Source: Candidatus Velamenicoccus archaeovorus
Lineage (GTDB): Bacteria > Omnitrophota > Gorgyraeia > Velamenicoccales > Velamenicoccaceae
Length of the DNA: 32,000 nt
Assembly: GCF_004102945.1 (NCBI RefSeq)
Contig: NZ_CP019384.1
Location: 1,200,001 to 1,232,000 of the forward strand
Reading direction: 5' to 3'
A program made the position numbers and the translations under genes. This document shows positions 26,374 through 26,823 of the stretch, piece after piece (within the stretch, counting starts at the first letter, position 1; every line of letters begins with the position of its first letter). The notes below the pieces were generated by a model. That model did no database searches, was not told the DNA's origin, and was given only the letters and a program-made list of their open reading frames with translations.

Positions 26374-26823
26374 CTACCTTTTGGCGTAACTCCTCTCAAT
26401 GGCCTTCTTGATGTCAGTCGTGGTGCTGACGAACGCCTGAACCACACACTGAGTGATCATTTCCACGTCTTCAATGGCCTGCGTATTGAGAGGATTCGAC
26501 ATGGCAACAGTAAGATTGTTGGCGATTTTGTCGATCGGGATAAGACAATACTGGCGCGCGACCTGCTCGGGAATGACGCGCGCAACCTCCGCATCAATAT
26601 CGTAATTGGCCAGGGGCAGATAAGGGAATCCGTATTGCGCCGTCAAGACCTGGGCGATATCTTCTTCTCTCGAAAAACCAAGCTGGACGAGGATCTCACC
26701 GACAAGTCCGCCGTTGACGCGCTGATATTCCAGCGCTTTCTGCAGCTGCTCGGCAGTAATGATCTTCCTCTCTATGAGAAGCTCACCCAGCTGTTTCGTT
26801 GTGACTCTCTTAAAAGATGACAT
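26374..26823 (-). CDS. Stand-alone T2SSE_N / MshEN-like domain protein (no ATPase domain)
   Basis: The 149-aa protein aligns with the N-domains of both PilB copies (...LLIERKIITAEQLQKALEYQ-RVNGG-LVGEILVQLGFSREEDIAQVLTAQYGFPYLPLANYDID...VARQYCLIPI...LTVAMSNPLN). SD GGAGAGA lies upstream. Confidence 0.8.
   Translation of the reverse strand: MSSFKRVTTKQLGELLIERKIITAEQLQKALEYQRVNGGLVGEILVQLGFSREEDIAQVLTAQYGFPYLPLANYDIDAEVARVIPEQVARQYCLIPIDKIANNLTVAMSNPLNTQAIEDVEMITQCVVQAFVSTTTDIKKAIERSYAKR

Follow-up and report, generated by a model that had tools for sequence, protein, structure and literature searches.

What does an MshEN domain do when it is not attached to an ATPase? To our knowledge, MshEN is one of the few widespread receptor domains for cyclic diguanosine monophosphate (c-di-GMP) and nearly all work on it has dealt with domains at the N-termini of ATPases for pili and secretion. 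The question is raised by a protein of 149 amino acids (aa) encoded at 26374..26823 on the reverse strand (-) of a 32,000-nucleotide (nt) stretch of the Candidatus Velamenicoccus archaeovorus genome (NZ_CP019384.1, positions 1,200,001 to 1,232,000; this whole stretch is the window, in whose numbering coordinates are given), where it lies in a type IV pilus operon together with two PilB assembly ATPases, PilB_A and PilB_B. The organism belongs to the Omnitrophota, an uncultured and largely ultra-small phylum. A preliminary description drawn from the sequence had called the protein a stand-alone MshEN-like domain and proposed that it could act as a c-di-GMP buffer, as a decoy or adaptor for the ATPases, or as a competitor for their docking site. 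The gene, its fold, the state of its motifs, its synteny and its conservation, together with the degenerate motifs of the two PilBs, point to a c-di-GMP receptor of the pilus machine that would act in trans. We give this reading an even chance of being right; what we infer in it is that the ligand is bound, with which partner the protein acts and in which direction.

A free-standing MshEN domain

The open reading frame (ORF) at 26374..26823 (-) begins with ATG and includes its own stop codon, and a purine-rich, Shine-Dalgarno-like (SD-like) GAGGAG is found 3 nt 5' of the start (26827..26832, -). The translation reads identically to the residues described earlier. Motif 1 occupies residues 11-34 (QLGELLIERKIITAEQLQKALEYQ; 26722..26793, -) in the predicted helices α1-α2, a five-residue spacer, RVNGG, occupies residues 35-39 (26707..26721, -), and motif 2 occupies residues 40-63 (LVGEILVQLGFSREEDIAQVLTAQ; 26635..26706, -) in the predicted helices α3-α4. 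A C-terminal α/β subdomain of the MshEN_C/T2SSE_N1 type follows at residues 64-148 (26380..26634, -). In an alignment of 30 family sequences, G39 of the spacer is invariant and G38 nearly so, while the YGFPYLPL linker and an AMSNPLN motif are invariant in the C subdomain.

Two curated models, the predicted fold and the missing ATPase domain bear out the description as a stand-alone MshEN domain. NCBIfam NF053729 ('c-di-GMP_motif, MshE-related', 53 positions) aligns residues 11-63 to model positions 1-53 with 62.1 bits (cut-off 38), and this end-to-end match agrees with the precise 24-5-24 layout that had been noted and can be read directly. Pfam PF05157 (MshEN) covers residues 64-148 with 68.2 bits (E 6e-19, cut-off 23.1) and is the sole Pfam match. 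In a search of the Protein Data Bank (PDB) with a profile of 30 family members, residues 6-148 aligned to PilF GSPII-A, to the N-domains of Geobacter and Myxococcus PilB and to the Vibrio cholerae MshE domain, VcMshEN (E 9e-20). The AlphaFold2 model (predicted local distance difference test score 89.6) has helices at residues 12-18, 24-37, 41-47 and 53-64, followed by the α/β subdomain, and its best PDB match in Foldseek is 5HTL, V. cholerae MshE with c-di-GMP (template modelling score 0.78/0.83, root-mean-square deviation 2.3 Å). The next matches are PilF GSPII-A and GSPII-B, the Xanthomonas PilB(N)-PilZ complex (7LKO) and XpsE-N; the N1 domains of GspE/EpsE crystallised with GspL/EpsL (2BH1, 4PHT) are weak partial matches (E 0.05-0.8, about 64 columns). 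In the model, helix α1 begins at L12 and residues 1-8 are disordered, which resembles the binding-competent state, although this is only a prediction.

No T2SSE ATPase domain (PF00437) with Walker A was matched by Pfam in the 149-aa protein, and TIGR02538 reaches 82 bits against a cut-off of 676; no PilZ or EAL fold was matched in Pfam or Foldseek. The label 'type IV pilus assembly protein PilB' carried by some orthologues is therefore an over-annotation, as no ATPase domain is present. With regard to the models themselves, PF05157, though named 'MshEN', covers the C subdomain only and not the c-di-GMP-binding bundle, and NF053729 also accepts both PilBs of the window, which lack the motif glycines (PilB_A 51 and PilB_B 43 bits, cut-off 38). 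A match to either model is no prediction of binding competence.

The motif published by Wang et al. 2016 (PMC5013675) is RLGxx(L/V/I)(L/V/I)xxG(L/V/I)(L/V/I)xxxxLxxxLxxQ, occurring twice with five non-conserved residues between the copies, and the consensus used in the preliminary description essentially agrees with it. Scored against the latter, motif 1 has the 9 of 11 positions reported, and motif 2 has 7 of 11 rather than about 8. As a background, 20,810 segments of 53 residues were taken from all six-frame ORFs of the window; the highest scored 11 of 22 consensus positions, compared with 16 for the MshEN protein, 17 for PilB_A and 16 for PilB_B, and a chance match was rejected on these grounds. 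The strict 2016 consensus, with Arg first in each motif, is matched at 16 of 22 positions, the deviations including Q11, L40, K20 and S51. The relaxed pattern [RKPN]hG likewise fails at both first positions (Q11, L40), and L40 fits the (R/K/L) extension of 2024. Thus the ORF is a real gene whose product is an MshEN domain standing alone, without an ATPase, and all sequence and fold comparisons place the protein in this family with the exception of the strict 2016 consensus.

Predicted ligand-contact residues in the family and in the PilBs

The relevance of each deviation can be judged from published mutagenesis. In VcMshEN, G11L gave no detectable binding and G40I bound 72-fold more weakly (Wang et al. 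2016, PMC5013675), and in Thermus thermophilus PilF an exchange of Gly for Ala costs 10-30-fold in binding (PMC11731258). By these measurements the motif glycines are the most critical positions. The first-position Arg, in turn, is replaceable: PilF GSPII-B binds with natural K167 and L196 lids at a dissociation constant (KD) of 6 nM, the motif-1 variant K167L is tighter (2 nM) and L196R is 4-fold weaker, which is why the consensus was extended to (R/K/L)LG (PMC11731258). The emphasis formerly placed on non-canonical first residues is consequently outdated. Q11 and L40 do replace the arginines, but a Leu-first motif occurs naturally in PilF GSPII-B (PMC11731258). The residues critical in mutagenesis are all present in the window's protein, namely G13 and G42, the clusters L12/I56/L60 and V41/L27/L31, and Q34 and Q63, and they are nearly invariant among 83 orthologues.

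These orthologues come from 83 Omnitrophota loci, on which the conservation and synteny counts given here are based. G13, G42, L40, I56 and Q63 are each found in 83/83, followed by L27 (81/83), L60 (80/83), L31 (79/83) and Q34 (79/83). Position 11 is Q in 68, H in 8, L in 3, K in 2 and P in 1, so that Q, H, L or K make up 81/83. Position 20, the tenth of motif 1, is K in the window's clade and Gly in 52/83 relatives. Q11 and L40 are, judging from these alignments, family traits and not private mutations. A further possible contact position lies in the C subdomain, where the invariant Asn of AMSNPLN, N110 (26494-26496, -), aligns with PilF D266. That residue contacts c-di-GMP from the C subdomain (PMC11731258), and VcMshE D108, which has the same role (PMC5013675), is presumed to be equivalent to the N110 position. 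Both neighbouring PilBs have Asp there (AMADPLN, AMSDPLN), and the change from Asp to Asn is specific to the stand-alone family.

The protein length is constant at 145-158 aa in the 83 loci, which belong to different species. The nearest named relatives are metagenome-assembled genomes of Candidatus Omnitrophota, and nearly all of the best 120 database matches are 134-154 aa long with 68-100% identity. Six of these 120 are instead 202-221 aa long with 56-62% identity, and those inspected have a duplicated N-bundle. A 212-aa variant of the form (MshEN_N)2 plus N1 subdomain was also seen in the same operon position in L002 (10001-10639) and L003 (1479-2117), and its second bundle copy reads RLIG instead of KQLG. 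Relatives are encoded by at least 573 stretches in GTDB species representatives, and the best 80 loci all carry Omnitrophota or coarse Planctomycetes-Verrucomicrobia-Chlamydiae (PVC) labels. Short relatives are common in metagenomes: at 50% clustering, 35 of the 150 best representatives are no longer than 170 aa and a further 29 measure 171-260 aa. A cluster look-up of 10 short representatives gave a single named one, from Omnitrophota, and a search for spread beyond the phylum, seeded with the diverged stand-alone representative P0256, returned P0256 alone.

The two PilBs of the window, whose N-domains are 36-43% identical to the MshEN protein, differ from it at the motif glycines. Both have the 24-5-24 layout with spacers KEHGG (PilB_A) and AKTGE (PilB_B), as had been read before. 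They had also been said to keep the Arg of motif 1 and to lose the Gly positions; the Arg is kept and the position-3 Gly is lost in both motifs (Q9/S38 in PilB_A, M9/K38 in PilB_B), but PilB_B retains the position-10 Gly of motif 2 (G45). Motif 2 of PilB_B begins with Asn rather than Arg. This loss extends across the related loci. In PilB_A the position-3 Gly is found in 0/75 sequences for motif 1 (T, Q, K or I instead) and 1/75 for motif 2 (Ser instead), and in PilB_B in 0/62 and 2/62, respectively. Where the consensus ends motif 2 with Gln, PilB_A mostly has Gly, and Gln is present in only 25/62 sequences of PilB_B.

From the aligned sequences, the position-3 glycines are the discriminating feature, kept in the MshEN protein and lost in both PilBs. 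Raw consensus counts would mislead as a predictor of binding, since PilB_A matches 17/22 positions and the MshEN protein 16/22. Because residues that contact the ligand and are dispensable for the fold are frozen in the MshEN protein and changed in PilBs that keep the fold, the MshEN protein would be expected to bind the nucleotide and the PilBs to bind it poorly or not at all. This contrast is the strongest indirect evidence for such a division of labour.

A fixed place in the pilus operon

The MshEN gene lies in a conserved neighbourhood, and the comparison of loci shows it to be a constant member of the type IV pilus operon in Candidatus Omnitrophota. A PilB gene follows directly 3' in 81/81 loci that reach far enough, and two full-length PilBs follow in tandem in 57/58, an arrangement kept across the phylum. 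A gene for a HAMP-GAF-GGDEF sensor with a degenerate active site (hereafter GGDEF*) precedes it in 72/76. Median gaps are 13 nt between GGDEF* and MshEN and 24 nt between MshEN and PilB_A, with many overlaps. No terminator-like site was found between the GGDEF*, MshEN and PilB_A genes, and separate transcription units for the three were rejected for this reason. In 39/46 loci no other gene of the cluster is as well conserved as MshEN, the median identity to the window's protein being 66% for MshEN, 63% for PilC, 61% for PilB_A, 57% for PilB_B and 38% for GGDEF*.

In the window all genes are on the (-) strand in the order PBP2, RodA, radical SAM, GGDEF*, MshEN, PilB_A, PilB_B, REC-HD-GYP, PilC, pilin, PilM/N/O, a small protein, PilQ and RNase G. 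PilB_A (24545..26278, -) is an MshEN-T2SSE pilus assembly ATPase by Pfam and NCBIfam (TIGR02538, 646 bits), and PilB_B (22675..24390, -) is a second MshEN-T2SSE ATPase by Pfam. Pfam also assigns PilC (20193-21386, -), the pilin (19185-19631, -), PilM (17821-18909, -), PilN (17267-17824, -), PilO (16618-17259, -) and the secretin PilQ (14647-16242, -), and gives a sub-threshold T2SSB match for the small protein (16243-16614, -; 23.6 bits, cut-off 28.4). No PilT-type retraction ATPase was found in the window.

The slot between PilB_B and PilC is occupied by receiver-domain enzymes of c-di-GMP metabolism. In the window this is a REC-HD-GYP response regulator (21417..22589, -; Pfam HD_5 and Response_reg), a putative c-di-GMP phosphodiesterase with intact HD and GYP motifs, and the gene is conserved in most loci. 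In L001 the slot (13929-19461) holds an intact REC-GGEEF protein, whose I-site reads RSVD, together with a GGDEF-AAA_16-HEAT protein of 1367 aa and another stand-alone MshEN, the second at this locus, in which the motifs start with hydrophobic residues (LLG, VLG). A second stand-alone MshEN is also found 5' of PilC in L034, L055, L062 and L078.

The 5' neighbour GGDEF* (26884..28347, -), assigned by Pfam and motif alignment, has EDGVF where an intact active site would read GG(D/E)EF, preceded by an RxxD-like REID. It lacks the DxD and ND substrate/metal residues, and its orthologues are degenerate too (GDDEF, GDNEF, SDDEF). Probably it serves as a sensor or scaffold rather than as a cyclase. 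A receptor role of the I-site (RxxD) as a family feature of GGDEF* was rejected, because REID occurs only in the window's clade and elsewhere the Arg is replaced by Ser or Thr. A PilB-related gene of about 330-355 aa lies between GGDEF* and MshEN in five loci (L039, L043, L057, L060, L067); the 355-aa product of L057, the one checked against Pfam, contains a T2SSE domain only.

The cell-shape genes PBP2 and RodA and a radical-SAM gene (PF19864 + PF04055) adjoin the pilus operon (28395-31998, -), with MreBCD further 5' in L001, and the order RodA, radical SAM, GGDEF*, MshEN is kept in most of the 83 related loci. The pilin gene is flanked by intergenic gaps of 232 and 275 nt (19632-20192; 18910-19184). 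A TTG-start ORF of 100 aa at 19864-20166, of odd composition and without a family match, is probably not a gene. An Rfam scan of the window at gathering thresholds found no c-di-GMP riboswitch or other RNA element in the cluster; its only match was a partial bacterial 16S rRNA at 1-1367 (-; RF00177, 1221 bits), cut by the window edge.

Possible function and relation to known systems

If the protein is a c-di-GMP receptor of the pilus machine, the four-helix bundle of residues 11-63 would bind one c-di-GMP in the manner of MshE and PilF GSPII-B. The backbone amides of G13-E14 and G42-E43 would contact the Hoogsteen edges of the guanines, the hydrophobic clusters L12/I56/L60 and V41/L27/L31 would lie beneath the bases, Q34 and Q63 would hold the ribose-phosphates, and Q11 and L40 would serve as lids in place of the classical arginines. 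The signal might then be relayed in trans via the N1-type subdomain to the two PilBs, which lack the motif glycines, or to the PilM/PilC platform, with the local c-di-GMP level perhaps set by the response-regulator enzymes of the operon, REC-HD-GYP in the window and REC-GGDEF in L001. A more specific version, which we consider somewhat less likely than not, is that Omnitrophota moved c-di-GMP sensing out of the pilus extension ATPase and that a separate, ligand-competent MshEN, better conserved than the motors, docks on PilB or PilM and switches assembly. Comparison of the loci speaks for a dedicated, c-di-GMP-linked part of the pilus machine rather than a passive buffer, because the gene keeps its operon position in 81/81 loci, has the highest conservation in the cluster and shares the operon with genes for c-di-GMP turnover. 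The same evidence leaves the adaptor and competitor roles unseparated.

Several observations weigh against a receptor acting on the PilBs. Q11 fits neither the relaxed [RKPN] pattern of 2016 nor the extended (R/K/L) consensus, and the position-10 Gly of motif 1 is replaced by K20 in the window's clade. PilF GSPII-A constructs whose motif 2 begins with Ser did not bind, and full-length GSPII-A stays inactive even when given a perfect consensus, owing to an N-capped, extended α1 and contacts between subdomains (PMC11731258); the consensus motif alone therefore cannot decide binding. PilB_A, for its part, retains R7, L8, L23, L27, Q30 and R/K36 and passes NF053729 at 51 bits, so that weak c-di-GMP binding by PilB_A is possible. 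Finally, the tight linkage to the GGDEF* gene makes a partner other than PilB possible.

Alternatively, the protein could be an interaction module with no role for c-di-GMP, its N1-type subdomain docking on PilM, PilC or the PilB hexamer and competing or bridging there. The C subdomain (64-148) is the most sequence-invariant part of the protein (YGFPYLPL, DK, AMSNPLN), a homologous N1 has been crystallised with GspL (2BH1 and 4PHT, the weak partial Foldseek matches) and PilB N-domains with PilZ (7LKO), the Arg lids are missing, and PilF GSPII-A illustrates that a consensus does not guarantee binding. An interaction module of this kind would not account for ligand contacts that face the solvent and are dispensable for the fold being nearly invariant (G13, G42 and Q63 in 83/83, Q34 in 79/83) while the same positions are changed in fold-keeping PilB paralogues of the same genomes, nor for the c-di-GMP turnover enzymes in the operon, and we consider it unlikely. 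Perhaps the ligand is instead another cyclic dinucleotide such as 3'3'-cGAMP, as the motifs begin with Gln and Leu where Arg would be canonical. The lids do differ from the canonical ones, and VcMshEN is reported to bind cGAMP as well (PMC5013675), but the residues that would read the Hoogsteen edges and ribose-phosphates are all canonical, the linked enzymes are of the GGDEF/HD-GYP type of c-di-GMP metabolism, and a Leu lid gives nM affinity for c-di-GMP in PilF (PMC11731258). A different dinucleotide is thus improbable.

The partner, on the other hand, could be the HAMP-GAF-GGDEF* sensor, with MshEN as its c-di-GMP-binding output or regulatory subunit and only an indirect link to the pilus. 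The two genes are adjacent in 72/76 loci, separated by a median of 13 nt and often overlapping by 1-10 nt, which would fit such a pair, and a GGDEF domain that is degenerate across its family may need a separate nucleotide-binding partner. Four loci (L055, L062, L064, L078) nevertheless have no GGDEF* gene and keep MshEN-PilB, with the second PilB present too where the contig is long enough (L055, L062, L078). The linkage to PilB is seen in 81/81 loci, five lineages have the PilB-related gene inserted between GGDEF* and MshEN, and conservation within the cluster is lowest for GGDEF* (38%, as opposed to 66% for MshEN), all of which makes this pairing quite doubtful. It could also be asked whether the gene is an artefact, either the N-terminal part left over from a third PilB that has decayed or the product of a frameshift in a PilB, given that orthologues are sometimes labelled PilB and that the protein is 36-43% identical to the neighbouring PilB N-domains. 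The constant length of 145-158 aa in 83 loci, its own SD-like site, start and stop codon, the highest conservation in the cluster, the complete PilBs with N-domains of their own that follow, and a 95-nt gap 3' of MshEN without any remnant of an ATPase domain effectively refute a PilB fragment or pseudogene.

The protein belongs to a known domain family; what would be new, and can be tested, is a ligand-competent free sensor set against glycine-less motors throughout a phylum. No functional study of stand-alone MshEN proteins, of Omnitrophota pili or of Pseudomonas aeruginosa PA3740 was found in the literature searched. If the more specific version, with sensing moved out of the ATPase, is true, it would be the first case of an MshEN protein regulating a type IV pilus in trans and would amount to the MshE/PilF design split in two, showing that sensor and motor can be separate polypeptides. 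Omnitrophota would also gain a candidate c-di-GMP receptor for their pilus machinery. A natural Gln/Leu lid pair widens the known sequence space of the binding motif, and a small (149 aa), soluble-looking protein suits the study of signal transmission through N1. Two pitfalls of annotation are exposed as well, as PF05157 covers the non-binding C subdomain only and NF053729 accepts glycine-less PilBs.

Compared with MshEN of V. cholerae (5HTL, PMC5013675), the two-subdomain fold, the 24-5-24 layout, the position-3 Gly, the hydrophobic triads and the terminal Gln are the same in both motifs. There the domain is fused to a T2SSE ATPase and both motifs start with Arg, whereas the window's protein has no ATPase, starts its motifs with Gln and Leu and has Glu in place of the Asp after the motif glycine. 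PilF GSPII-B of T. thermophilus (8PDK, PMC11731258) shares the non-Arg lids, with an identical Leu start of motif 2 and the same 'LGE' context, but it belongs to a row of three GSPII domains on an ATPase, and its motif 1 has Lys at the start and its motif 2 one residue less. MshEN modules that are not joined to a T2SSE ATPase are known from P. aeruginosa PA3740 (MshEN-xT2SSE_N1) and Cyanothece cce_1044 ((MshEN_N)2; Wang et al. Supplementary Table 4). PA3740 is listed among proteins whose c-di-GMP binding went beyond prediction and is linked to swarming (Wang et al., PMC5013675). Its N1 is highly diverged and cce_1044 has none, whereas the window's protein has a canonical N1 (Pfam, 68 bits) and lies inside a pilus operon; a plain MshEN_N with a canonical N1 is absent from the architecture table of Wang et al. 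(PMC5013675). The fold of the C subdomain (64-148) is that of the GspE/EpsE N1 bound to GspL/EpsL (2BH1, 4PHT), and Wang et al. (PMC5013675) state that MshEN_C and N1 are equivalent; in GspE/EpsE, N1 is part of an ATPase and lacks the c-di-GMP bundle. A precedent for the proposed mechanism is the FimX-PilZ-PilB relay of Xanthomonas and Pseudomonas (7LKO), which has the logic of a trans-acting c-di-GMP receptor on PilB. The likeness is functional only, as the receptor folds there are unrelated (an EAL domain with a PilZ adaptor), and the FimX-PilB interaction is reported to have been shown experimentally (PMC5595344), while for the MshEN protein a corresponding contact with PilB would follow from its fixed place beside the ATPase genes.

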